Shown: positions 1 to 36,305, counted from the stretch's first letter. The stretch: DNA of 64,000 bases from Actinomycetota bacterium (GCA_036397035.1 DASWJS010000014.1:36014-100013), one strand, 5' to 3'. The notes: generated by a model from the sequence alone, not told the origin. Made by a program: numbers and translations.

Positions 1-736
1 AGGTGTCGGGCGCCCAGAAGTGGAACGGGACCGCGGAGACCTTGAACGCGAAGCCGGCGACGATCAGCAAGATGCTCGCCGTGACGAGCGGCGCGTCGCC
101 CTGGGCGCGCAGCGCCTCGGCGATCGCGCTGAGGTTGGTCGACCCGGTGACGCCGTAGATCAGCGACATGCCGAAGAGCATCACGGCCGAGGACAGCACG
201 CCGAACAGGAAGAACTTCACCGCGGCTTCGTTCGAGCGGTCGTCGGCCTTCTTGAAGCCGGCCATCACGAACCCGGGGATGCTCACCAGCTCCAGCGCCA
301 CGAACAGCGCCAGCATGTCGCGCGCGCTTGCCATCGCGACCATGCCCAGCAGACTCGACAGCAGCAGGAAGTAGAACTCGCCCTGGATGCGCTCGGCTCG
401 TTCGGCGAGGTAGGTGACTGAGATCAGGATCGTCAGGCCGCCGACCGCGAGGAACAGGAACTTGAACAGCATCGCGTAGCCGTCGAGGACGAACATGCCG
501 CCGAAGGTCTCGCGCCCGCCGGCGGGCCGGTCCCCCACCAGCGTCGCCAGCGCGATCGCCGCGGCCCCGATTCCCAGCGCCGAGACCACCGCGTTGAGCG
601 GCTTCGCGCGCGAGGGAAGGAACAGGTCGACGACGAGCACGACGACCGCCGCGACGGTCAGCGCGATCTCCGGCGCGATCGCGTGAAGGTCGACGTTCAG
701 CAGCGCGTCGGTGGAGACCTGGGCGAGGACGCTCAT
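1..736 (-). CDS. nuoN: NADH-quinone oxidoreductase subunit N (5' part; gene runs off window start)
   Basis: Hand translation of the minus strand from ATG at 736-734 gives MSVLAQVSTDALLNVDLHAIAPEIALTVAAVVVLVVDLFLP...AGFAFKVSAVPFHFWAPDT. Polytopic membrane protein with the NuoN/ND2-type PFHFW-PD motif. Starts 1 nt after the nuoM stop. Not in the ORF track because it has no in-window stop. Confidence 0.75.
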   Translation of the reverse strand, partial: MSVLAQVSTDALLNVDLHAIAPEIALTVAAVVVLVVDLFLPSRAKPLNAVVSALGIGAAAIALATLVGDRPAGGRETFGGMFVLDGYAMLFKFLFLAVGGLTILISVTYLAERAERIQGEFYFLLLSSLLGMVAMASARDMLALFVALELVSIPGFVMAGFKKADDRSNEAAVKFFLFGVLSSAVMLFGMSLIYGVTGSTNLSAIAEALRAQGDAPLVTASILLIVAGFAFKVSAVPFHFWAPDT

Positions 737-737
737 C

Positions 738-2264
738 TCAGAACAAGCTCGCGAGGGCCGTCACGGCGTCGTTGGTCATGTCCAGCACCGCTCGCGGGAA
801 GACGCCGAGCGCGACGATGCCAACGAGCAGCGGCGCCCACGCGACCCACTCCATCGTCCGCACGTCGTCGATCGAGGCGTCGGCCGCCCACTTCTCGCGC
901 AACTGGCCGAGCCCGAGCCGCCGAATCAGCCAGAGCATGTAGCCCGCGGTCAGGATCGTGCCGACGCCGCCGAGCACCATGTACGAGCGGTAGAGCCCCT
1001 GGTGGAGCCCGTCGGCCGGGCGGAAGGCGGCGAGCAGCGCCAGCACCTCGCCCCAGAAGCCCGCCAGGCCGGGCAGGCCGAGCGAAGCGATCCCGGCGAA
1101 GACGAACACCGCTCCCATCCGCGGGATCTTCGTCAGCAGCCCCGGCCCGATGTCGTCGATGACGCGCGTGTGGTAGCGCTCGTACATCGACCCCGCGAGG
1201 AAGAACAGCATCCCGGTAATGAGGCCGTGGGCCACCATGCCGAAGACGGCCGCGTTGATCCCGACGTCGGTCAGCGTCGATATGCCGAGCATCACGAAGC
1301 CCATGTGACCCACCGAGGAGAACGCGATCAGCCGCTTGATGTCCTTCTGCGCCAGGCAGCACAGCGCGCCGTACAAGATCGAGATCACCGCCAGCGCGCC
1401 GATGTAGGGGGCCCACGTGCGCGCCGCGTCGGGCAGCAGGGGCAGCGCGATGCGGATGAAGGCGTAGGTCCCCATCTTCAGCAGGACGCCGGCAAGCAGG
1501 ACCGAGCCGACCGTCGGCGCGTCGCCGTGCGCGTCGGGGAGCCACGTGTGGAACGGCCACATCGGCACCTTGATCGCGAAGCCGAGGAACAGGCCCAGGA
1601 ACACCAGGTGCTGGAACCCGACCCCGCCGAAGGTCTGGCCCTGCAGCAGGATCATGTCGAAGGTGTGGTTGCCGTCGGGCCCGACCGAGCGGAAGTACAT
1701 CGCCAGAAAGCCCAGCAGCATGAACACCGACCCGAACAGCGTGTAGAGGAAGAACTTGATCGCGGAGTATTCCTTCCGCTCGCTCCCCCAGATGGAGATG
1801 ATGAAGTACATCGGGACGAGCACCATCTCCCAGAAGACGAAGAACAGCACCAGATCCAGCGAGGTGAACGTGCCGGCCATGCCGGTCTCCAGCAGCAGGA
1901 CCAGCGCGAAGAAGCCCTTGAGGCGCCCTTCGGGCTTCGGGGGAACGCGCAACGTGTAGAGCACGCACAGGAAGGTCAGTAGCGCCGTCAGGACGACCAG
2001 CGGCAGCGAGATGCCGTCGATGCCCATGTGGTAGCGGGCGAAGATCGTCTCGATCCAGCTCGTGTCGACCTCGAACTGGAACGCGCCCGTGCGATCGAAG
2101 TCGAACCGCGCGAGCGCGACCAGCGAGAACACGAAGGCCGCGCCGGACGCGACCACCGCGAGCGCCTTCATCGCGACCTCGTTGCCGCGCGGCACCAGCG
2201 CGATCAGCACGCCTCCCACCAGCGGCGTGAACACCACCAGCGAGAGCAACCAGTCGTCGAACAT
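738..2264 (-). CDS. nuoM: NADH-quinone oxidoreductase subunit M
   Basis: 508-aa polytopic protein with ND4/NuoM hallmarks (WLPDAH..APT, MYERYHTRVIDDIGPGL). Lies between nuoL and nuoN. Confidence 0.85.
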   Translation of the reverse strand: MFDDWLLSLVVFTPLVGGVLIALVPRGNEVAMKALAVVASGAAFVFSLVALARFDFDRTGAFQFEVDTSWIETIFARYHMGIDGISLPLVVLTALLTFLCVLYTLRVPPKPEGRLKGFFALVLLLETGMAGTFTSLDLVLFFVFWEMVLVPMYFIISIWGSERKEYSAIKFFLYTLFGSVFMLLGFLAMYFRSVGPDGNHTFDMILLQGQTFGGVGFQHLVFLGLFLGFAIKVPMWPFHTWLPDAHGDAPTVGSVLLAGVLLKMGTYAFIRIALPLLPDAARTWAPYIGALAVISILYGALCCLAQKDIKRLIAFSSVGHMGFVMLGISTLTDVGINAAVFGMVAHGLITGMLFFLAGSMYERYHTRVIDDIGPGLLTKIPRMGAVFVFAGIASLGLPGLAGFWGEVLALLAAFRPADGLHQGLYRSYMVLGGVGTILTAGYMLWLIRRLGLGQLREKWAADASIDDVRTMEWVAWAPLLVGIVALGVFPRAVLDMTNDAVTALASLF

Positions 2265-5682: not shown

Positions 5683-6690
5683 CTAGAAGGCCACCTTGAA
5701 GATCATCGTGAGCAGGATGTTCACCAAAGCGATCGGGATCAGGTACTTCCACGCCATCTTCTGGAGCTGGTCCTCGCGCAGGCGCGGGTAGGTCGCGCGC
5801 AGCCAGATGATGAAGAAGGCGAGCAGACCGACCTTGCCGAGCGTCCAGATCGGCGCCGGGATGAACGGGATCAGCAGCCCGTGCCAGCCGCCGAGGTAGA
5901 GCACCGTCGCCACCGCCGACAGCGCGACGATCCCCGCGTACTCGGCCAGCAGGAACATCGCGAAGCGCACGCCGGTGTACTCGGTCATGTGACCGAAAAT
6001 GATCTCGGAGTCCGCGATCGGCATGTCGAAGGGAGGGCGCGACAGCTCGGCGAGGCTCGCCAGCAAGAAGAGCGCGAAGCCGGCGAACTGCGGGATGACG
6101 AACCAGTAGCTGTCCTGCGCCTCGACGATCCCGACGAGTGAGATCGTGCCCGCCTGCATCGCGACGGCGCTCGCGGCGAGCACCAGCGGCAGCTCGTATG
6201 CGATGAGCTGCGCGGCGCCGCGGATCGCGCCGATGAGCGCGAACTTGTTGGCGCTCGACCAGCCCGCCATCAGCATGCCGATGACGCCGATCGCGCTGAT
6301 CGCCAGCACGAAGAACAGCCCGAGGTCGAAGTTCTCGCCCCAGATGCCGTTGGCGGGGTTGTCTCCGGGTCCGGGCCCGAAGGGCAGCACCAAGAACACC
6401 AGGATCGTGGGAACCAAGGCCACGATGGGTGCGACGGAGAAGACCTTGCGGTCGGCCGCCGCCGGGATGATGTCCTCCTTCTGGATGAACTTCACGCCGT
6501 CGGCGATGAGCTGCGCCCAGCCGTGAAACTTGCCGGCCTCCATCGGCCCGAGCCGCGACTGCATGTGCGCGAGCCCCTTGTGCTCGGCATAGCCCACGAC
6601 CATCGGCGCGGTCAGGAAGACGAGCAGCACCGCGACCACCTTGAAGACGAGCACGATCCAGGGGTTGGCGAACAGCTCGTTGAAGATCAC
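5683..6690 (-). CDS. nuoH: NADH-quinone oxidoreductase subunit H
   Basis: 335-aa polytopic protein with NuoH/ND1 motifs (MQSRLGPMEAG, AGWSSANKFALIGAIRGAAQLIAYE). Only a 22-nt gap to nuoD, with no room for nuoEFG. Confidence 0.9.
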   Translation of the reverse strand: MIFNELFANPWIVLVFKVVAVLLVFLTAPMVVGYAEHKGLAHMQSRLGPMEAGKFHGWAQLIADGVKFIQKEDIIPAAADRKVFSVAPIVALVPTILVFLVLPFGPGPGDNPANGIWGENFDLGLFFVLAISAIGVIGMLMAGWSSANKFALIGAIRGAAQLIAYELPLVLAASAVAMQAGTISLVGIVEAQDSYWFVIPQFAGFALFLLASLAELSRPPFDMPIADSEIIFGHMTEYTGVRFAMFLLAEYAGIVALSAVATVLYLGGWHGLLIPFIPAPIWTLGKVGLLAFFIIWLRATYPRLREDQLQKMAWKYLIPIALVNILLTMIFKVAF

Positions 6691-6712
6691 CGGCGCGCCC
6701 CCCTGCTCGTCC

Positions 6713-7906
6713 TCATCGATCGACGTCCCCGACGACGAAGAACACGCTGCCGAGCACCGCGATCAGGTCCGGCAGCAGGATCCCCTCCAGCAGGTACGGG
6801 ATCATCGAGACGTTGTGGAAGGACGGCGTGCGCATCTTGAGCCGCCACGGCTCCTTCTCACCACGCGAGACGAGGTAGTAACCCAGCTCGCCCAGCGAGT
6901 TCTCGACGCGCGTGTAGGTCCAGCCCTCCGGCGGCTGGATGTACTTCGGCATCTTGCCCGGCAGGATCGCGCCGGCCGGCATCTTGTCGTGCACCTGCTC
7001 GATGATCTTCAGCGACTCCTCGATGCGGCGGTACAGCACGACGAAGCGGTCGTAGCAATCGCCGTTCTCGCCAACCGGCACGTCGAAGTCGACCTCGTCG
7101 TATTTCAGGTAGGGCTCGGTCTTGCGGGCGTCCTCGGCCACCCCGGATGCCTGCAGGATCGGGCCGCTGACGCCGTAAGACTTGGCGACCTCGCCGGGCA
7201 GCACGCCGATGCCGACCGTGCGCTTGCGAAAGATCTCGTTGCCGAGCAGCAACCCGTCGTAGTCCAGCAGCCGGTGCCGGATCTTGCGGACCAGCGCGGC
7301 CGAGTGCTTCAGGAACCCCGCCGGCAGGTCCTCCTTCAGCCCGCCGACGCGGTTGTAGGTGAAGTGCATGCGCGCGCCGGTCGCGGCCTCCAGCAGGTTC
7401 TGGATGTCCTCGCGTTCGCGGAACGCCAGGAACATCGGCGTCATCGCGCCCAGCTCCAGCCCGAAGGAGCCGAGGAACATCAGGTGGTTCAGCACGCGGT
7501 TCCACTCGGCCATCAGCATCCGGATCCACTGCGCGCGCTCCGGCACCTCCATCTCCATCAGCTTCTCGACCGCCAGCACGACGCCAAGCTCGTTACCGAA
7601 GGCGCTCAGCCAGTCGTGGCGGTTGGACAGCGCGATGATCTGCCGGTAGTCGCGCACCTCCGAGAGCTTGTCGAAGGCGCGGTGCATGTAGCCGATGACC
7701 GGCGTGGCCGTGGCGATGCGCTCGCCGTCGAGCGTGAGCACGACGCGAAGCACGCCGTGGGTCGAGGGGTGCTGCGGCCCGATCGACAGCGTCATCTCTT
7801 GCGTGGCGAACTCCGCCTCGGCGCCGGCGATCACGACCTGGACGCCCTCGCCGGGGCCGCCGGGGATCGTTCCCGCCTGCCGCAGCTCGGTGGGCCCCGC
7901 CATCAT
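6713..7906 (-). CDS. nuoD: NADH-quinone oxidoreductase subunit D (49 kDa)
   Basis: 398 aa from MMAGPTEL.. with [18 protein letters not shown] and C-terminal RTPSFHNV motifs. ATG at 7906 is adjacent to the nuoC stop. The upstream 132 codons of the track ORF are frame artefact. Confidence 0.85.
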   Translation of the reverse strand: MMAGPTELRQAGTIPGGPGEGVQVVIAGAEAEFATQEMTLSIGPQHPSTHGVLRVVLTLDGERIATATPVIGYMHRAFDKLSEVRDYRQIIALSNRHDWLSAFGNELGVVLAVEKLMEMEVPERAQWIRMLMAEWNRVLNHLMFLGSFGLELGAMTPMFLAFREREDIQNLLEAATGARMHFTYNRVGGLKEDLPAGFLKHSAALVRKIRHRLLDYDGLLLGNEIFRKRTVGIGVLPGEVAKSYGVSGPILQASGVAEDARKTEPYLKYDEVDFDVPVGENGDCYDRFVVLYRRIEESLKIIEQVHDKMPAGAILPGKMPKYIQPPEGWTYTRVENSLGELGYYLVSRGEKEPWRLKMRTPSFHNVSMIPYLLEGILLPDLIAVLGSVFFVVGDVDR

Positions 7907-8972: not shown

Positions 8973-9344
8973 TCACACCCACTCCAGGACCTTCTTCTTC
9001 CATGCGTAGAGCAGGCCGACAGCCAGGATGACCACGAACACGATCATCTCCACCAGGACCAGCCCCGCGTTGGGGAACCGCTCGAAGATCGTGGCGAAGG
9101 GGAAGAGGAACACCGCCTCGACGTCGAAGATCACGAACAGGAAGGCGTAGATGTAGTAGCGGATCTGGGTCTGGCTCCAGCCCTCGCCGACGGGGTCCAC
9201 GCCGCACTCGTAGGTCGTGTACTTCTCGGGCCGGGCGAAGGTCGGCCGCATGATCCGGTTGACCAGAAACCCGACGGCGACAAAGCCCGCGCCGGCCACC
9301 GCGAGCACGCCCAGAGTCCCGTATTGCCAGAAGTAATCCGTCAC
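8973..9344 (-). CDS. nuoA: NADH-quinone oxidoreductase subunit A
   Basis: 123 aa from GTG at 9344 (VTDYFWQYGTLGVLAV...YECGVDP...YIYAFLFVIFDVEAVFLFP). A GGAG Shine-Dalgarno lies 6 nt upstream. The N-terminal 32 codons of the track ORF are probably not translated. Confidence 0.8.
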   Translation of the reverse strand: MTDYFWQYGTLGVLAVAGAGFVAVGFLVNRIMRPTFARPEKYTTYECGVDPVGEGWSQTQIRYYIYAFLFVIFDVEAVFLFPFATIFERFPNAGLVLVEMIVFVVILAVGLLYAWKKKVLEWV

Positions 9345-9466
9345 CTGAACTCCCCGTTCGCGCGCTCGTGCTCGCACCCTTGTGAAGGCGCTCACGAGCG
9401 GCGCGCGGCGCATCGTATCGCAGCCACTCCGACCACCCAAAACGGTGGGAAGCTAGGTGGCGTCGG

Positions 9467-9694
9467 TCAGAGCAACTCGATGAACTCCTGCCTGCTTATC
9501 CCTGCGACACGCAGAATCCCGTGAAGCGTGCCGGTCTTGAGATCGCGGTTGTGCATGGGGACGGACACGGCTTTCTTCAGCGCGGGGTGCACCATGATGT
9601 GGTGGGAACCGCGAACCCGATCCAGGCGCCAGCCCTTCTTCTCCAGCACCCGGACGAGTTCCCTCGGCTTGACCGCCGGCAGCTTCGCGCTCAC
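9467..9694 (-). CDS. hicA: HicA-family toxin (mRNA interferase, YcfA-like)
   Basis: PRELVRVLEKKGWRLDRVRGSHHIM...VPMHNRDLKTGTLHGILRVAGI fits the HicA fold and motif. Probable GTG at 9694 overlapping the hicB stop (GTGA). Confidence 0.7.
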   Translation of the reverse strand: MSAKLPAVKPRELVRVLEKKGWRLDRVRGSHHIMVHPALKKAVSVPMHNRDLKTGTLHGILRVAGISRQEFIELL

Positions 9695-9918
9695 GAAGCG
9701 CGAATCACGACTCGATCCCGCTCGCTCGCGGGCGGGTCCCACCCCTGCCCGCGCATGGCATCGAGGTATCCCTCGATAGCCTCTTTCGCCATCGCCAGAG
9801 CGTCGTCACGACTCTCCCCCTCCGTGACCACATCCGGCAACTCAGGGACGAGAACGGTGAACCCACCCTCGTCTTGGGGAACGAGGATGACCTCGTACTC
9901 GCGCTCCCTAGCCATCAC
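9691..9918 (-). CDS. hicB: HicB-family antitoxin
   Basis: 75-aa acidic protein (EYEVILVPQDEGGFTVLVPELPDVVTEGESRDDALAMAKEAIEGYL) of the UPF0150/HicB-like type. Overlaps hicA. Confidence 0.65.
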   Translation of the reverse strand: MMAREREYEVILVPQDEGGFTVLVPELPDVVTEGESRDDALAMAKEAIEGYLDAMRGQGWDPPASERDRVVIRAS

Positions 9919-9982
9919 TCGATACCTCCTTCTCAGTCATTAGAGTCCGCCATCCGATTGGCTGCTCATCCTTGAGTCGTCC

Positions 9983-10016
9983 GCCCAACAGCCCGTTGCA
10001 CGCGCAAGTTAGACCG
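9983..10016. repeat. intergenic repeat element copy 1 (attC-like: GCCCAAC ... TTGCACGCGCAAGTTAGAC)
   Basis: 20/22-nt identity with 10604-10625. On the gene strand it reads GTCTAAC(TAA stop)-TTGCGCGTGCAAC-GGGCT-GTTGGGC. It lies between the DUF2442 stop and the hicB start. Confidence 0.4.
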
Positions 10017-10260
10017 CACTCGTGGCGCTCGCCCGCTCGTGGAGTGCCTCCGGAGCGATATCAGCGCCATTCGGCCACGTGATCGTGCCTGCTTCCACGA
10101 AGAATCGCTTGAAGAACTCGGGAGATCGCAGCGGTTCGAACATCGGTCCTGAGAGCCAGTCCTCGAAGTCCACGATCGAGTCCAAACCATCGTTGAACAC
10201 AACCCTGATCCGGAATCCGTCCACGTATTCAGCCGCGGTCACGAGCGGGAGCGGTTCCAT
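10009..10260 (-). CDS. DUF2442-family small protein
   Basis: 83 aa ending ..WPNGADIAPEALHE, typical of DUF2442. Immediately downstream of the DUF4160 gene, which is the usual pairing. Confidence 0.55.
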   Translation of the reverse strand: MEPLPLVTAAEYVDGFRIRVVFNDGLDSIVDFEDWLSGPMFEPLRSPEFFKRFFVEAGTITWPNGADIAPEALHERASATSAV

Positions 10261-10269
10261 GGGAGCATT

Positions 10270-10530
10270 CTACTGGAGCGGCTCGATCCGTTCGAGGCGT
10301 TCCCCGCCTCGCGCCCGATCCCAATCGGCGGCCAGTTCCACAGCGTGCGCCCGCGCCCACTCCTCGATGAGTCTCTTGGCGGTCCGAGACCGGAGCTGGC
10401 CAGCCAGCGGCGTTCCGTCGAAGGTGAAGGTCGCCTGTTCGCCCTGATGCTCCGCATGAAAATGGGGTGGAGCGTGGTCTCGGTAATACATGCGGATCAC
10501 GATTCCGAAGAACGTCGAGATGACGGGCAT
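10270..10530 (-). CDS. DUF4160-family small protein
   Basis: 86 aa with MPVISTFFGIVIRMYYRDHAPPHFHAEHQGEQATFTFDGTPL, the DUF4160 signature. Forms a putative TA-like pair with DUF2442. Confidence 0.55.
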   Translation of the reverse strand: MPVISTFFGIVIRMYYRDHAPPHFHAEHQGEQATFTFDGTPLAGQLRSRTAKRLIEEWARAHAVELAADWDRARGGERLERIEPLQ

Positions 10531-10558
10531 GCGGCGATCGTATCTCGCCGCAGGGACG

Positions 10559-10627
10559 GCCTAACGACCCGGCGCGTCAGCGGCCGGATGCCGCAGGCGG
10601 ACGGCCCCTTGCACGCGCGAGTTAGCT
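10559..10627. repeat. intergenic repeat element copy 2 (attC-like, ~69 bp)
   Basis: On the gene strand it reads AGCTAAC(TAA stop)-TCGCGCGTGCAAGGGGCC, then an imperfect hairpin GGCCG..CGGCC, then GTTAGGC. It lies between the Cys-rich gene stop and the DUF4160 start. Confidence 0.4.
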
Positions 10628-10993
10628 GGCAATCTCCGTGCTGATCGCATCGGGTTCCAGGATAAGGGCATGGGGCATCCAGCAGTCCGATTTCTCTGTG
10701 CCCACTGCGTGTCCTTTCCGGCAGAGGACGTTGGGACCGTCCAACCCGTCGAGACCACAGCACCCGTTCAGTCGGGAGGGGTCGTCCGTGCGTCGGATGT
10801 TCCTCGCATCGTGAAGATTCATGATTACTTTGCCCTCGGTTCCCGTGAAGAACGAGCCGTCCGAGAGAACGTAGCGTCCTTCGGGTACATGGGGTGCGTT
10901 ATCTGCATCGGATAGAGCGGTGAGATCGGCAAGCTCTTCGAGATGGCTCGAGAGCTCCGTCTTGCACAGCTGGCAACGAAACATGTGGCTCAT
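10622..10993 (-). CDS. hypothetical Cys/His-rich (probable Zn-binding) protein
   Basis: 123 aa with CQLC..(68)..GCCGLDGLDGPNVLCRKGH..DCWMPH. I do not recognise the family. The TAA stop is embedded in a repeated intergenic element. Confidence 0.4.
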   Translation of the reverse strand: MSHMFRCQLCKTELSSHLEELADLTALSDADNAPHVPEGRYVLSDGSFFTGTEGKVIMNLHDARNIRRTDDPSRLNGCCGLDGLDGPNVLCRKGHAVGTEKSDCWMPHALILEPDAISTEIAS

Positions 10994-11309
10994 CCGATGT
11001 TAGCCGGGTTAACTCCTTCTTGAAAAGACCGGGTTAACACCCGTCTGAGCAGATAACACCTAGTCGACGCGGGTCGAGGAGTCAGCTTGCCATGATTGAC
11101 TTGCAAGAACCCTCGCGCGAAGCCCTTTGGACATTTGTCCAGAGCGAGCTATGCGCTCGCGCCCAGCGGTTCGAGCGGGCGGGCGGGGATCGCCGGGAGC
11201 GGGGACTCGGTGGGCCCCTCGAACGGCGCGCCAGCGACGTGAGAGGGAGGACCGCAGTGAGCGAACTCGGTGACGCGGTCACGCGTCGCCGAGTTCGGGA
11301 ACGGGTCCC

Positions 11310-11332
11310 CGCGGAGGCGAGCCACGCCCGCC
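11310..11332. repeat. 23-bp perfect direct repeat, copy A (CGCGGAGGCGAGCCACGCCCGCC)
   Basis: Identical 23-mer at 14241-14263. Lies ~45 nt 3' of the 408-aa gene in a 380-bp noncoding stretch. Confidence 0.7.
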
Positions 11333-11375
11333 TGCGGACCCTCAGAGGAGAGGCAACCCGGCAGGCTCGCGCAGG

Positions 11376-12602
11376 TCAGGACTCTACGACGACGTCGATC
11401 CGGCTCGCGCGCAAAGGCAGGAAGCCAAGGAACGCGTACGTGCGCCGGATGGCGATCACCGTGGTGTCGTACCGATCTGCGAGCGCGCGCGCGGCGGCGG
11501 CCGGGCTCTTGCCCCGCGCGAGCGCCGGTCCGTCCTCGATCCCGATCAACTCGACTGTGGCGGTGACCGTGGCCTCGATGCGGCCGCGCCGCAGGACGGG
11601 CTCCTCCGGCCGAAGCGACCCCTCGACGATCGCATGCGCCTCAGGCAGCAGCGGCTCGAGCTGCTCGAGCGCCCGGTCTTCGAGCGCGCGAACGCTGAAG
11701 GCCGCCGCTCGCGCGTTGACGCGGGCCGTGACCGACGGCGTCGAGCACGAGTAGCAGTCGACCGCGTTCCATGCCTGCCCGTCCCGGATCGTGACCTCGC
11801 GATCGAGCATGATCGTGCCGTCGAACCCCTTGCGCGCGGCCGCGCGCTCGGTCCGGTCCCGGATCGCCGTCGTCGCCGCCTCGCGCGCGGCACGGCGAGC
11901 GGCTTCGACGTCGGGCACGCGAACCAGCGGTACGCCCGCGTCGCGTCCGCCCGTGATCGACTTCAGGTTCGCCGTGTACACGTTCACGCCGTCGAGCTGC
12001 TTGACCTCGGTGTACTCGACGTAGTGCTCGCCGGCGTGATTCGCGTCGTCGCCCGCCTCCAGCGCGACGATCGGAACCTCGAGCGAGCGCAGATGGCACT
12101 CCTCGGCGACGATGAAGAGCAGGAAGATGGGGAAGCCGCACCGCTCGCGCGTCGGCGAGATGCGCGCCGCCGCGGTGGTTCGGTACAGGACGTCGCCCGC
12201 CTCCAAGCACCGCCGATCGTTGTTCTTCGCATGCTTCGCGCACGACCCGACGATTGTCCCGGCCGGCACCAGGCTCGACGGCGCCTCCTGCTTCCGCTCC
12301 GAACACCCCCCGAACGGCTGGTTGCACGTGCGCGGACAACAGAAGAAGATCACCGACCCCTCCGCCCGAGCCGCCGTCGAGCGCCCCGTCGGCTCGACGG
12401 GGCGGGTCACGCTCGACGCCGCGGTCACCTCCGCCGCCGGCACCGACACGCGCGTCTGCACCTGCGCGGGAGCCGCCAGCACGACCGTCGCCCGCGGCGC
12501 GAGCGCGAACATCCCCGCCAGCGTCAGCACCACCGTGATGGCAGCCGCAAGCCAAAGAATCCGCGACTTCGTCCCCGTCCGAGCGTCCGAGTTCTCTGGC
12601 AT
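11376..12602 (-). CDS. hypothetical membrane-anchored Cys-rich protein
   Basis: 408 aa with an N-terminal TM/signal anchor (ILWLAAAITVVLTLAGMFALA) and a Cys-rich region. Overlapping ORFs in other frames look like Arg/His/Asp-rich frame artefacts. Function unknown; gene model uncertain. Confidence 0.35.
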   Translation of the reverse strand: MPENSDARTGTKSRILWLAAAITVVLTLAGMFALAPRATVVLAAPAQVQTRVSVPAAEVTAASSVTRPVEPTGRSTAARAEGSVIFFCCPRTCNQPFGGCSERKQEAPSSLVPAGTIVGSCAKHAKNNDRRCLEAGDVLYRTTAAARISPTRERCGFPIFLLFIVAEECHLRSLEVPIVALEAGDDANHAGEHYVEYTEVKQLDGVNVYTANLKSITGGRDAGVPLVRVPDVEAARRAAREAATTAIRDRTERAAARKGFDGTIMLDREVTIRDGQAWNAVDCYSCSTPSVTARVNARAAAFSVRALEDRALEQLEPLLPEAHAIVEGSLRPEEPVLRRGRIEATVTATVELIGIEDGPALARGKSPAAAARALADRYDTTVIAIRRTYAFLGFLPLRASRIDVVVES

Positions 12603-12676
12603 CGAGCCGTTACCCGGCGCGCTGTGTGCGGTTGAAGCGGACCGAGATAGACAACGAGCGCAACGGTGCGTTCAAG

Positions 12677-12910
12677 CTACCGCGCCTCGTCGAGTGGCCT
12701 GACGGCGATCACATCGCGTTCTTCGACTGGACGCACGTCATCGATCCTCAGAGTCAGCACGGCCTGCGTTCTTCCCGATCCCGTCACGAACTCGACCTCC
12801 AAGCCGTCGGGTTCGTAACGCTCGACCACAGTGCCAAGGTCACCACGACGGAGCCCGTGCTCCGGGACGTCTCGAGCAAGGACAACGGTCTGAAGCAGTT
12901 CATATCTCAT
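12677..12910 (-). CDS. DUF4926-family small protein
   Basis: 77 aa (MRYELLQTVVLARDVPEHGLRRGDLGTVVERYEPDGLEVEFV..) matching the DUF4926 pattern. 4-nt overlap with the upstream DUF6883 gene. Confidence 0.5.
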   Translation of the reverse strand: MRYELLQTVVLARDVPEHGLRRGDLGTVVERYEPDGLEVEFVTGSGRTQAVLTLRIDDVRPVEERDVIAVRPLDEAR

Positions 12911-13245
12911 GGCCTCGCTCCTGGGAACGCCGTCACGAACCTCGGGGCATCCTCACCCGTAAGGATAATCCAGACCGACACGACCTGAGCCTCCTTTCCG
13001 CCAGGCCCGCGCAACGGTCCGCTAACGGTGTATTTCCGGCCAAACGCCGTCTCTTCCATTGAAGCGATTCCCTCGACAGCGTGCATCCTGAGATCAGCGA
13101 GCAAGGTTCCCCACGCCTCGGGCGTATAGCCGAGAGCTGCGAAGAACTTCGCCTTGAACTGCCCAACTGGATGCGACGAAGACAGAAGGTAATCGCGTAC
13201 CTTGCGAGGCTCAACGACGGCCTCGTTGGCACCTTCGAACGACAT
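12907..13245 (-). CDS. DUF6883-family protein
   Basis: 112 aa with DYLLSSSHPVGQFKAKFFAALGYTPEAW, a DUF6883-like region. This family is commonly paired with DUF4926. Confidence 0.5.
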   Translation of the reverse strand: MSFEGANEAVVEPRKVRDYLLSSSHPVGQFKAKFFAALGYTPEAWGTLLADLRMHAVEGIASMEETAFGRKYTVSGPLRGPGGKEAQVVSVWIILTGEDAPRFVTAFPGARP

Positions 13246-13472
13246 CGCGCGACTCTACAGCGCCGCAGGGACACAACAGACCGACGGATCGGTTCACAGC
13301 ACGTGTCGACAGCGAGGACCAATCACGAGGTGGCTGTTTGGCCGCTTGCGCGCTTCGGTCGGTCGGCGTTCAACCGATCGTGCTCGTCACTACCCACTCC
13401 TTCTCTTCCAACATCTTTGGGACCTCCGTCAACGCGCGGCTGAGCGACGCTTCAATCCCCCCACGCTCAAAG

Positions 13473-13700
13473 CTAGCGAGCGTTTGAGGGCGGGTCACCG
13501 TCGTCCATGTTCTTGCGTACTGGGTTCCAGTAGAGGACGTTTAGCGTGGCGAGCGCGGCGAAGGCAAGCGCCTCCCACTGACGCGTGACGAAGAACCCGA
13601 TCACTCCGAACACCGCAAAGACCGAGCCGAGCACGACCTGCCACGTAGCGTGCCTTCCGACGCGCCGGCGGACCTTTTCGTCCCTCGGTTCCCTGAACAT
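13473..13700 (-). CDS. hypothetical small membrane protein (2 TM)
   Basis: 75 aa with a basic N-terminus and two hydrophobic helices. No recognisable family. Confidence 0.35.
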   Translation of the reverse strand: MFREPRDEKVRRRVGRHATWQVVLGSVFAVFGVIGFFVTRQWEALAFAALATLNVLYWNPVRKNMDDGDPPSNAR

Positions 13701-13806
13701 CAGCCGCTCGTTCCAATCCGCGGTCGCACGGCGTGCTCGCGTGAGCTATCCGTCACCGGAGAACATGCCCACGAGCGGTCGGAGCCCCTCGGGCTGCCTC
13801 ATCGAG

Positions 13807-13953
13807 CTATCGCGCAACGTGGCGCACCTCACCAAGCACTTGCCCGTTGGTCTCGCCGCGGAGCTTGAGGGGCATCAGGATCTGCGTGCCTGCATTTCCC
13901 GGTGCCCTGAAAGCCATCGGTGCGGTTGGGTGCTCGTCAAGCAGTACGCGCAC
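13807..13953 (-). pseudogene. DUF5615-like (Mut7-C/PIN-like) remnant, truncated
   Basis: GTG overlapping the DUF433 stop gives VRVLLDEHPTAP..., the start of the usual DUF5615 partner of DUF433. It stops after about 48 codons (full length is ~110 aa), and the downstream frames are broken. Confidence 0.3.
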
Positions 13954-14165
13954 GCGGAACTGCGCCCTCCAGGGCATCGAGAGCCTCGTTGACCTGCTCA
14001 CGAGTCACGGACGGAAACTGCTTCAGGAACTCCTCGACGCTGTAATCGTCTTCGAGATAGTCGATCAGGTTCCGAAGCGGCACCCGCGTGCCGACGAACA
14101 CCGGAGTCCCGCCGAGGATCTCCGGGTCAGAGTGCACGACCGAACTCAGATCACCCACGCCGTGA
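13937..14165 (-). CDS. DUF433-family protein (antitoxin-like)
   Basis: C-terminal ~75 aa of the track ORF (SDPEILGGTPVFVGTRVPLRNLIDYLEDDYSVEEFLKQFPSVTREQVNEALDAL) is a typical DUF433. Start codon is ambiguous (GTG or TTG around 14150-14190). Confidence 0.55.
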
Positions 14166-14240
14166 TCATACCGCCTCGAGTCGCCCTGCCTACCGCATTC
14201 GCCAGCGTCAGAGCGTATTCCCGCGAGGATCGTCGCAACA

Positions 14241-14263
14241 CGCGGAGGCGAGCCACGCCCGCC
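14241..14263. repeat. 23-bp perfect direct repeat, copy B
   Basis: Identical to 11310-11332. Lies immediately 3' of the GT2 gene stop (14272) at the right-hand edge of the small-gene island. Confidence 0.7.
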
Positions 14264-14271
14264 CGCATGGC

Positions 14272-15126
14272 TCAGATGATGGGCGGACGGCCCGCGCGGG
14301 TCATGCGGGCGACGGTGCTCCAGCGGATGGGTTTGCGCTCGCCCGCCGGCTCGCGAAAGCCGGCGCCGAAGCCGGCGAGGAGCGCGCGCGCGTCGGCGAG
14401 GGAGCGGGCTCGGGCGAGCGTGAGGACCATCCAGACCGCCACGTAGATCGGCGCGAGGAGCCACGGCAGGCGGCGGCGGGCGAGGAAGACGCGGTTCCGA
14501 GCAGTCGTGCGATGGAACCAGGCGTGGCGCTCGGCCGGCTCGGACGGGTGCGCCACCGCGAGGTCGCCCGCGTAGCGAACGGCATAGCCCGCGTCGAGCG
14601 CTCGCCAGGCGAGGTCGGTGCCCTCGTGGCCGAAGTAGAACTCCTCGGGATATCCGCCGACCTCGGCGAACACCGAGGCCCGGATGGCGCACGCGCCTTC
14701 CAGGAACGTCGTCGCATCGCTCGACCGGCGCGGGTCCCCCGCGCGCAGTCGGGGAACGTGACGGCGCTGGCCCGGCCGACCGCTCGGGTCGTCGATGCGA
14801 AACGAGACGATGCCGAGGCGCGGCTCGGCATCGAACCGGGACAGCGCCCGCGCGACGAGGTCGCGATCGGGATAGGACGTGTCGTCGTCCAGGAAGAACA
14901 GGACGTCGGCGCGAACGGCCTCGACGGCTCGGTTGCGCGCCGCGGCCGGGCCGACGTTCTCCGGTAGCGCGAGCACCCGCACGCCCGCGCCTACCGCCGG
15001 CGGCTCGCACCCGTTGCAGACGAGCCAGACCTCGGGCGAGCCCTCTTGCGCGAGCGCCGAATCCAGCGCGCGCGCGACCTCGGCGGGCCGGGACCCAGCC
15101 GTCAGGACGATGCAGGCCGCGTTCAC
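14272..15126 (-). CDS. glycosyltransferase family 2
   Basis: 284 aa from GTG at 15126 (GTGA overlap with the upstream stop). GT-A motifs: CIVLTAGSRP..., FFLDDDTSY (DxD), GGYPEEFYFGHEGTDLAWR. Confidence 0.75.
   Translation of the reverse strand: MNAACIVLTAGSRPAEVARALDSALAQEGSPEVWLVCNGCEPPAVGAGVRVLALPENVGPAAARNRAVEAVRADVLFFLDDDTSYPDRDLVARALSRFDAEPRLGIVSFRIDDPSGRPGQRRHVPRLRAGDPRRSSDATTFLEGACAIRASVFAEVGGYPEEFYFGHEGTDLAWRALDAGYAVRYAGDLAVAHPSEPAERHAWFHRTTARNRVFLARRRLPWLLAPIYVAVWMVLTLARARSLADARALLAGFGAGFREPAGERKPIRWSTVARMTRAGRPPII

Positions 15127-35825: not shown

Positions 35826-36305
<480 letters not shown>

Follow-up and report, generated by a model that had tools for sequence, protein, structure and literature searches.

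The 64,000-nucleotide stretch of Actinomycetota bacterium DNA analyzed here (GCA_036397035.1 DASWJS010000014.1:36014-100013; the window) carries, between a glycosyltransferase gene and nuoA, two copies of a short repeat which an original prediction had compared to attC, the recombination site of integron cassettes. We found that both repeats belong to a structured family of elements that bound gene cassettes and that are elsewhere linked to integron integrases, one of the two copies being complete and the other truncated. Sequence comparison makes it very probable that the repeats are attC sites, one intact and one deleted, of a GC-rich soil family of Actinomycetota and Armatimonadota, and that they form a small cluster devoid of integrase, likely the fossil of a cassette capture.

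The core of the repeat, GCCCGTTGCACGCGCAAGTTAG at 9991-10012 and GCCCCTTGCACGCGCGAGTTAG at 10604-10625, is identical at 20 of 22 positions, and with up to three mismatches allowed (≤3), the window yielded these two stretches and no others, against 0 expected by chance from 100 shuffles of the window. Both cores overlap a TAA stop codon when read on the minus strand, which is the gene strand: the DUF2442 gene (10009-10260) terminates in GTC TAA C, and a gene encoding a protein of 123 amino acids (aa; 10622-10993) terminates in AGC TAA C. TAA is otherwise rare here, being the stop codon of 2 of the 73 long open reading frames (ORFs) of the window with a high G+C content at third codon positions (GC3). 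Copy 2 reads AGCTAAC-[55 nt]-GTTAGGC (10559-10627) and copy 1 reads GTCTAAC-[18 nt]-GTTGGGC (9983-10014). The repeat, its location at gene ends with the stop codon inside, and the inverted 7-bp cores bounding copy 2 were thus as originally described.

A scan of two public collections, of genomes and of metagenomes, with CCNTTGCACGCGCNAGTTAG retrieved ten loci, namely, seven contigs from soil metagenomes and three contigs of metagenome-assembled genomes (MAGs; two Actinomycetota and one Fimbriimonadaceae). Nine of the ten carried the core as the 5' arm of the same layout as in window copy 2, consisting of CTAACTCGCGCGTGCAACGG, a GC-rich hairpin variable in both sequence and length, and CCGCTGACGCGCnGGGTCGTTA. 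The remaining locus (L007) harbored the core only, the rest of the element being absent, scored 12 bits on the opposite strand, and represents a chance match or a degenerate copy. A scan of viral contigs with the 5' arm returned one match inside a phage tape-measure gene, unaccompanied by a model match, which we attribute to chance.

Two covariance models were generated, R1 from eight copies and R2 from the 47 copies located outside the window (alignment A3). Together they recovered 47 further copies, which lie on one strand only within a contig, spaced by 320-1340 bp, and which form arrays of 3-6 sites in L004, L005, L006, L009, L010, L011, L015, L021, and L025. Consecutive copies are separated by one or two co-oriented ORFs, the first of which starts ~1-100 nt (commonly 10-35 nt) past the preceding GTT. 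The ORF end lies inside the nTAAC of the following copy in 11 of ~43 units and otherwise 10-42 nt ahead of it. As read from these contigs, this layout is the anatomy of an integron cassette array.

The elements measure 61-102 nt from R'' to R', with 14-55 nt between the CGG and CCG stems, and conform to the consensus nnGCsGy-nTAAC-TC-GCGssT-G-CA-A-CGG-A-[14-55 nt]-CCG-c/a-TG-AssCGC-ARRGTC-GTTAr-rCnGAC. The AAC triplet was present in 46 of 46 copies and GTT in 45 of 46. The extrahelical bases that the original prediction had proposed to look for were also found, in the form of an unpaired G between GCGssT and CA (44 of 47 copies) and a following unpaired A (41 of 47), both of which are present in window copy 2. 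Among the cells of the 23 proposed pairs in the 47 non-window copies, 91.8% held standard pairs, and compensatory double changes affected 15 of the 23 pairs, for example, GCGCGT/ACGCGC versus GCGGCT/AGCCGC. None of 500 shuffles reached the observed pairing values, and pairing fell to 25-35% when the 3' partners were shifted by one to three columns. The 11-pair helix was paired in 96.1% of the cases, with compensatory change at 7 pairs, and an alignment of 34 copies gave the same pairing picture as that of 47. Folding copy 2 as a single sequence was no better than folding its shuffles (z = -0.28 and +0.71), which is uninformative in such GC-rich DNA; the evidence for structure is thus the comparison across copies, not folding energy. 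In their aligned sequences, the parts of the family match those of attC: R''/R' boxes with the triplets, L''/L' boxes whose R''/L'' arm bears an additional base, the unpaired spacer, and the variable terminal structure.

Four arrays (L015, L021, L023, and L025) lie directly downstream of an integrase gene, intI, whose product matches the integron integrase family TIGR02249 with 336-448 bits (cutoff, 265). The 5' end of L015, which carries six element copies, encodes the C-terminal 268 residues of an integrase-like protein showing 52.6% identity to IntI1 over residues 120-332 (E 1.7e-63), the integron-specific insertion included. The IntI1 query was confirmed by a full-length match to NCBIfam NF011946 (799 bits) and by 100% identity to the intI1 of thousands of plasmids. 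Homologues of the L015 protein named "integron integrase" occur in MAGs of Actinomycetota, Armatimonadota, Acidobacteria, and Planctomycetota. The four integrases are 69-75% identical to each other and ~50% identical to IntI1. All four intI genes are located on the strand of the cassette array ("inverted"), unlike the divergent class 1 arrangement. The window itself, as originally noted, has no integron integrase or remnant thereof, since tblastn with IntI1 and the four soil IntIs gave nothing below E 0.3.

In a reciprocal test, R2 was run over 39 kb from three class 1 integron plasmid regions. Its top four matches were the attC sites of dfrA1, of the neighboring cassette that ends at the 3'-conserved segment, of aac(6')-IIc, and of aac(6')-Ib4 (20.2, 19.9, 14.4, and 12.5 bits), all on the cassette strand and with TAAC and GTTA aligned.

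Within the window, R2 matched copy 2 at 10554-10634 on the minus strand with 70.9 bits (E 1.3e-15, model positions 1-83 of 83) and copy 1 at 9978-10021 on the same strand with 17.5 bits (E 0.036); beyond these two sites, it found nothing above noise. R1 scored them at 86.3 and 18.8 bits, respectively. Copy 1 was aligned only via R'', R', and the flanks, with 17 nt where the model has 56 positions. Half-site weight matrices gave 21.1 and 35.1 for the intact site, against shuffle maxima of 13.0 and 14.5, while copy 1 had the best 5' half-site of the window (25.6) and no 3' half-site. With two 5' arms but a single 3' arm in the window, and with R2 matching through the ends only, copy 1 is a deletion derivative. 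It reads GTCTAAC-TT-GCGCGTGCAACGG-GCT-GTTGGGC, and its GGGCTGTT resembles the family consensus of 3' spacer and R', GGGTCGTT, suggesting that the hairpin lost ~40 nt through a deletion running from the L'' end into the 3' spacer, with the join between CAACGG and GCTGTT. The 3' flank of copy 1, GTTGGGCGGAC, consists of R' and a cassette start as in L004 and L011. Both copies carry the AAC and GTT triplets at their two ends; the outer four bases are loosely conserved. The outer four bases of R'' and R' are also loosely conserved in known attC sites. The L''/L' stem with both unpaired bases is present in the intact site, and copy 1 lacks L'.

The end cores originally described for copy 1 were therefore correct, but the site is not a short complete attC, having lost its L' arm and variable center. 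Similarly, the imperfect hairpin noticed in copy 2 does exist but corresponds to the variable terminal structure of attC. A weaker third copy, proposed at 13341-13358, had to be abandoned, as neither R1, R2, nor the half-site matrices scored it above background.

The closest homologue of the 123-aa protein is encoded by the sixth cassette of L015 (80% aa identity), which has its own attC. Gene and attC together align with their L015 counterparts over 416 nt without gaps, at 84% nucleotide identity, from the third codon to six bases before R', and the flanks are unrelated (DUF4160 in the window and a different ORF in L015). This one instance suggests that a cassette moved as a unit, with breakpoints at the cassette boundaries. 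The 123-aa family comprises 69 homologues, mostly on short metagenome contigs. Only this gene and DUF433 (in L005) among the window cassette genes have homologues in the arrays that we fetched. The invariant triplets, the bulged L-box stem with its compensatory changes, the variable center, the arrays of uniform orientation, the TIGR02249 neighbors, and the recurring cassette all bear out the attC interpretation of the original prediction.

According to the established integron model, the single-stranded element would fold into a bulged hairpin through pairing of R'' (nnnTAAC) to R' (GTTAnnn) and of L'' (GCGssT-G-CA) to L' (TG-AssCGC). IntI would bind the R and L boxes, cut R' between the G and the first T of its GTT (G↓TT), and join the site to attI or to another attC, so that cassettes would be inserted and excised by recombination between IntI-bound sites. 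The site at 10559-10627 would then end the 123-aa cassette and start the DUF4160/DUF2442 cassette, and it could still fold and be cut at G↓TT if IntI were supplied in trans. The truncated site would be unable to form the second integrase-binding (L) box, and the DUF4160/DUF2442 and hicBA units would thus be fused and frozen together. Since no intI occurs within 64 kb, the locus can be described as a small attC cluster devoid of an integron integrase (CALIN), or as a single attC site lacking integrase (SALIN) if the remnant is not counted. It is most likely the fossil of a cassette capture into the glycosyltransferase-nuoA spacer and would be inert unless IntI were supplied from elsewhere in the genome. 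Its junctions are compatible both with off-platform insertion and with decay of a former array and do not separate the two. More tentatively, and with doubts prevailing, the family and its clade of co-oriented IntIs (69-75% identical) could constitute an active soil integron system shared by Armatimonadota and Actinomycetota, of which the window would show an off-platform capture beside nuo, locked by the hairpin deletion.

Features of the window (positions in the 64,000-nt stretch) and integrase-associated arrays (positions in the respective locus)
Feature	Location	Strand	Details
Intact attC	10559-10627	-	69 nt from R'' to R'; 86.3 bits (R1), 70.9 bits (R2)
Intact attC, R'' AGCTAAC	10621-10627	-	Includes TAA stop of the 123-aa gene
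Intact attC, 5' spacer TC	10619-10620	-	
Intact attC, L''	10613-10618, 10612, 10610-10611, 10609, 10606-10608	-	GCGCGT, bulged G, CA, unpaired A, and GGG, respectively
Intact attC, variable center	10584-10605	-	
Intact attC, L' CCG-C-TG-ACGCGC	10572-10583	-	
Intact attC, 3' spacer CGGGTC	10566-10571	-	
Intact attC, R' GTTAGGC	10559-10565	-	Predicted crossover G↓TT between 10565 and 10564
Deleted attC	9983-10014	-	32 nt; R'' GTCTAAC (10008-10014) with TAA of the DUF2442 gene; R' GTTGGGC (9983-9989)
Deleted attC, order of parts		-	R'', L'' arm TTGCGCGTGCAACGG, GCT, R'; L' arm and variable center absent
123-aa ORF, function unknown	10622-10993	-	No Pfam/NCBIfam match; its attC is the intact site
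Two-gene cassette, 576 bp	9989-10564	-	DUF4160 (10270-10530, PF13711) and DUF2442 (10009-10260, PF10387)
hicBA segment	9450-9988	-	hicB (9691-9918, PF15919) and hicA (9467-9742, PF07927)
Accessory island, ~4.8 kb	9450-14271	-	From glycosyltransferase stop (14272) to nuoA upstream hairpin
Island gene order (falling coordinates)		- (all)	DUF433 (13937-14137), 75-aa, DUF6883/DUF4926, 408-aa, 123-aa, DUF4160/DUF2442, hicB/hicA; then nuoA and rest of nuo operon
L015, intI fragment	1-807		Followed by six copies
L021 (GCA_040905475.1, Actinomycetota), intI	10001-10984		Followed by six copies
L023 (GCA_050693875.1, Actinomycetota), intI	10001-10888		Followed by one copy before contig end
L025 (GCA_031458615.1, Armatimonadota), intI	10001-11086		Followed by three copies

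The chromosomal setting of the island was examined in two metagenome contigs (L029 and L031) whose glycosyltransferase shares 63-66% aa identity with that of the window and which have the same eight-gene glycosyltransferase/ABC/CDP-alcohol cluster. Here the glycosyltransferase-nuoA gap measures only 123 nt (L029) and 199 nt (L031), the island is absent, and no attC was found in either locus. A hairpin and an inverted repeat upstream of nuoA are common to all three and start, in the window, within ~17 nt of the hicA stop. The empty spacer of L029 and L031, together with the conserved nuoA upstream region, indicates that the ~4.8 kb (~9450-14271) are an insertion. The adjacent glycosyltransferase is 100% identical to a protein of an Actinomycetota MAG, and its named homologues are from Actinomycetes. 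Cumulative GC skew falls steadily on the plus strand, the gene strand (the attC top strand) being the G-rich one. In chromosomal integrons, such a bias would perhaps place the recombinogenic bottom strand on the leading-strand template, the quiet orientation.

The region upstream of nuoA is of interest in itself. Comparison of 9379-9449 (minus strand) with 8885-8975 of L029 and 7270-7378 of L031 revealed the hairpin CCCACC-GTTT-TGGGTGG (9433-9449), a GATAnnAT box, and the inverted repeat CTCGTGAGnnnnTTCACAAG (9379-9398), all kept in two relatives at ~65% protein identity; these are a candidate terminator, promoter, and regulator site of the nuo operon. In addition, 35862-36247 shows 72% DNA identity to the nuoB region of that operon, suggesting a second complex I-like gene set in the window.

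Within the island, the DUF4160/DUF2442 cassette extends from G↓TT in the intact attC to R' in the deleted one, its first ORF starting 34 nt past the boundary. The hicBA segment has the family-typical cassette start TTGGGCGGAC at its 5' end, and this end suggests that the segment, too, arrived as a cassette. No partner site was recognizable upstream of the 123-aa cassette, and R2 and the half-site matrices detected no attC remnants above background after the 408-aa gene, around DUF4926/DUF6883, or at the 75-aa and DUF433 genes. GC3 is below the genome norm in nine of the ten island genes (0.67-0.82). The 408-aa ORF (11376-12602), with no Pfam/NCBIfam match and an N-terminal hydrophobic segment, has a genome-typical GC3 of 0.90, and the island therefore looks mosaic.

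Several further observations concern these genes. The 123-aa family (P0001 to P0069) has conserved cysteines (CQLC near the N terminus, CCG, and C...C), a hint of a metal-binding fold. Just upstream of the 123-aa ORF, at 11004-11043 on the minus strand, GTTAACCCGG occurs twice, 25 nt apart. The first occurrence supplies the loop, as well as the 3' arm, of CGGGTGTTAACCCG, a terminator-like hairpin with a T-run behind it, and the second is similar to the 5' cassette end of the L015 homologue, GTTAACTGGAC. We considered GGGTGTTAACCCGG, upstream of the same ORF, as the 3' end of an attC, but it is better explained as a terminator-like hairpin with a T-run. The ~380 nt that separate the 123-aa cassette from the 408-aa gene (10994-11375) contain no convincing gene-strand ORF and no detected attC, attI-like sequence, or intI remnant. 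The island DUF433 protein (about 13937-14161) is 64% identical to that of an attC-bounded cassette of L005 (566-793) that also holds a 107-aa partner gene; the partner may be truncated in the window, where one gene caller gave only a 56-aa overlapping ORF.

Outside the window, the six-site array of L006 (Actinomycetota MAG) is flanked by fragments of IS481-like and IS3-like transposase genes (1258-1629 and 7430-7750), IS denoting insertion sequences, and lacks intI within 8 kb; IS elements may have moved or cut this CALIN. L016, a Deltaproteobacteria MAG contig, has two weak attC-like matches (22-23 bits; 1251-1323 and 1684-1759) beside a group II intron reverse transcriptase gene, and ~5 kb away, outside arrays, a 58%-identical homologue of the 123-aa protein (6539-6925) adjoining an RNase T gene.

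The alternatives that the original prediction had kept beside attC, a family-specific operator and a repeat left by serial insertions, turned out not to be needed. GC-rich hairpins placed straight after stop codons, with many repeats per locus, could also be repetitive extragenic palindromes, terminators, or mRNA-stabilizing hairpins that spread at gene 3' ends without integrons. However, no T-run follows the stem, the AAC and GTT triplets are invariant, and a bulged base is conserved; moreover, four arrays begin beside integron integrases, and a gene has moved from array to array together with its hairpin, the breakpoints lying at R'. Rfam offered no family either, with no match at gathering score in the window and no relevant match in 9300-14400 at E ≤ 1. 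We consider this explanation highly improbable. It is less probable still that the window copies are target-site or end repeats left by serial insertions of another mobile element. They do lie in an inserted 4.8-kb island of atypical codon composition, but domain annotation of this island revealed no transposase or other recombinase, and the copies belong to a 48-copy structured family whose other members are found in integrons. Least probable of all is that the core is an operator through which a transcription factor or an antitoxin autoregulates downstream toxin-antitoxin operons, even though the distance from each window copy to the small operon downstream of it (hicBA and DUF4160/DUF2442) is 70-90 nt and a short imperfect palindrome, TTGCGCGTGCAA, is present in the core. 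Elements of the related arrays follow unrelated genes (those for glyoxalase, UDG, SnoaL, a methyltransferase, and many unknowns) and precede equally unrelated ones, what is conserved is a 60-100-nt hairpin with compensatory changes rather than a short duplex site, and a scan of 9300-11500 identified no sigma-70-like promoter.

Other points weigh against the attC reading itself or against parts of the scenario built on it. The assignment was made with the family models R1 and R2, outside the generic attC model of IntegronFinder, and canonical attC sites receive low R2 scores (12.5-20.2 bits, E 0.005-0.4). Relative to class 1 attC sites, the family has a 3' spacer and an L stem that are longer by 3-4 nt, with an unpaired spacer of 2 x 6 nt instead of ~5 x 6 nt. 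Wobble counts on the gene strand (37 G.T versus 24 A.C) do not indicate which strand folds. Recombination of these sites by IntI would follow from the established integron model, the family being known here from sequences alone, and the host assignments of L021, L023, L025, and the other MAG loci depend on MAG binning. In the window, one site is complete, and the covariance models and half-site matrices found no attC downstream of hicA or any other island gene, the cassette origin of the rest of the island being putative.

Read as attC sites, the repeats represent a familiar kind of element and imply no new mechanism; mildly notable is the host phylum. The integrases are already named integron integrase in the NCBI annotation of MAGs, so that this is not a new kind of element. 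Surveys of complete genomes reported no complete integron and few CALINs in Actinobacteria (PMC4889954, PMC9024848), and a 2026 permafrost study noted a "virtual absence" of integrons in Actinomycetota (PMC13323075). Through the family, an actinobacterial chromosome is tied to complete integrons whose contigs were binned to Actinomycetota and Armatimonadota. If this binning holds, integron-mediated gene flow reaches Actinomycetota in soil, and the attC family, through R1, R2, and the consensus, would provide a specific probe for finding further cases. As regards annotation, the toxin-antitoxin and unknown genes of the 4.8-kb island can be read as captured cassettes, putatively so where no attC is present.

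Compared with class 1 attC sites, the family has the same overall design: R'' ends in TAAC and may include a stop codon, R' starts with GTTA, the center is variable, and the R''/L'' arm carries a single additional base in the L box. The attC of dfrA1 (NZ_CP032189.1, L033 4674-4780) reads TTAAC-AAGT-GGCA-G-CA-A-CGGA...TCCG-C-TG-TGCC-AGGC-GTTAAG and shares with the family the bulged G, CA, A, CGG ... CCG, C, and TG, as well as the 8 nt from AAC to the bulge. In contrast, its 3' arm has 8 nt between TG and GTT, where the family has 12 nt, with a spacer of 2 x 6 nt. The bulged base on the gene strand is G in the family and in dfrA1 but C in aac(6')-Ib4; its identity thus varies among accepted attC sites. 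The family is also much more GC-rich than class 1 sites, its flanks are conserved past R'' and R' (GCsGy...rCnGAC), and its integrases are only ~50% identical to IntI1 and encoded in the orientation of the array. This co-orientation is likewise found in the "inverted" IntI sub-clade of the soil/freshwater clade, which has intI and cassettes on one strand, and by their orientation the four integrases may belong to it.

In IntegronFinder 2, a CALIN, that is, an attC cluster lacking an integron integrase, contains ≥2 attC sites (PMC9024848). Regarding two attC sites within 4 kb and no nearby intI, the window sites are 613 bp apart, the second is a 32-nt remnant (E 0.036-0.042), and there is no intI in 64 kb. 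A standard pipeline would probably leave the remnant uncounted, making the locus a SALIN. Like described CALINs and SALINs (PMC4889954, PMC9024848, bioRxiv 10.1101/2022.09.11.507474), the locus is a very small set of attC cassettes in a chromosome without nearby intI or flanking transposase; it differs in that one of its two sites is truncated, which by a strict count leaves a single predicted functional attC, as in a SALIN. Such insertion outside an integron is accepted as one of their origins, and cassettes have been demonstrated to enter genomes off-platform (bioRxiv 10.1101/2022.09.11.507474), but a clean attC x attG product is not seen at the window junctions, as the nuoA-proximal end has no attC.

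Finally, the family resembles sedentary chromosomal integrons, such as those with the Vibrio VCRs and the Xanthomonadales-type attC sites, in the high similarity of attC sites within an array, beyond the generic consensus (PMC8352920), and in cassettes that encode mostly unknown proteins and toxin-antitoxin pairs. The 11 published taxon-specific attC models include none for Actinomycetota or Armatimonadota (PMC8352920). Unlike the homogeneous attC families of sedentary integrons, the present one spans MAGs of these two phyla, which fits the finding that attC sites group according to environment and not to phylogeny (Ghaly et al. 2021, PMC8352920).

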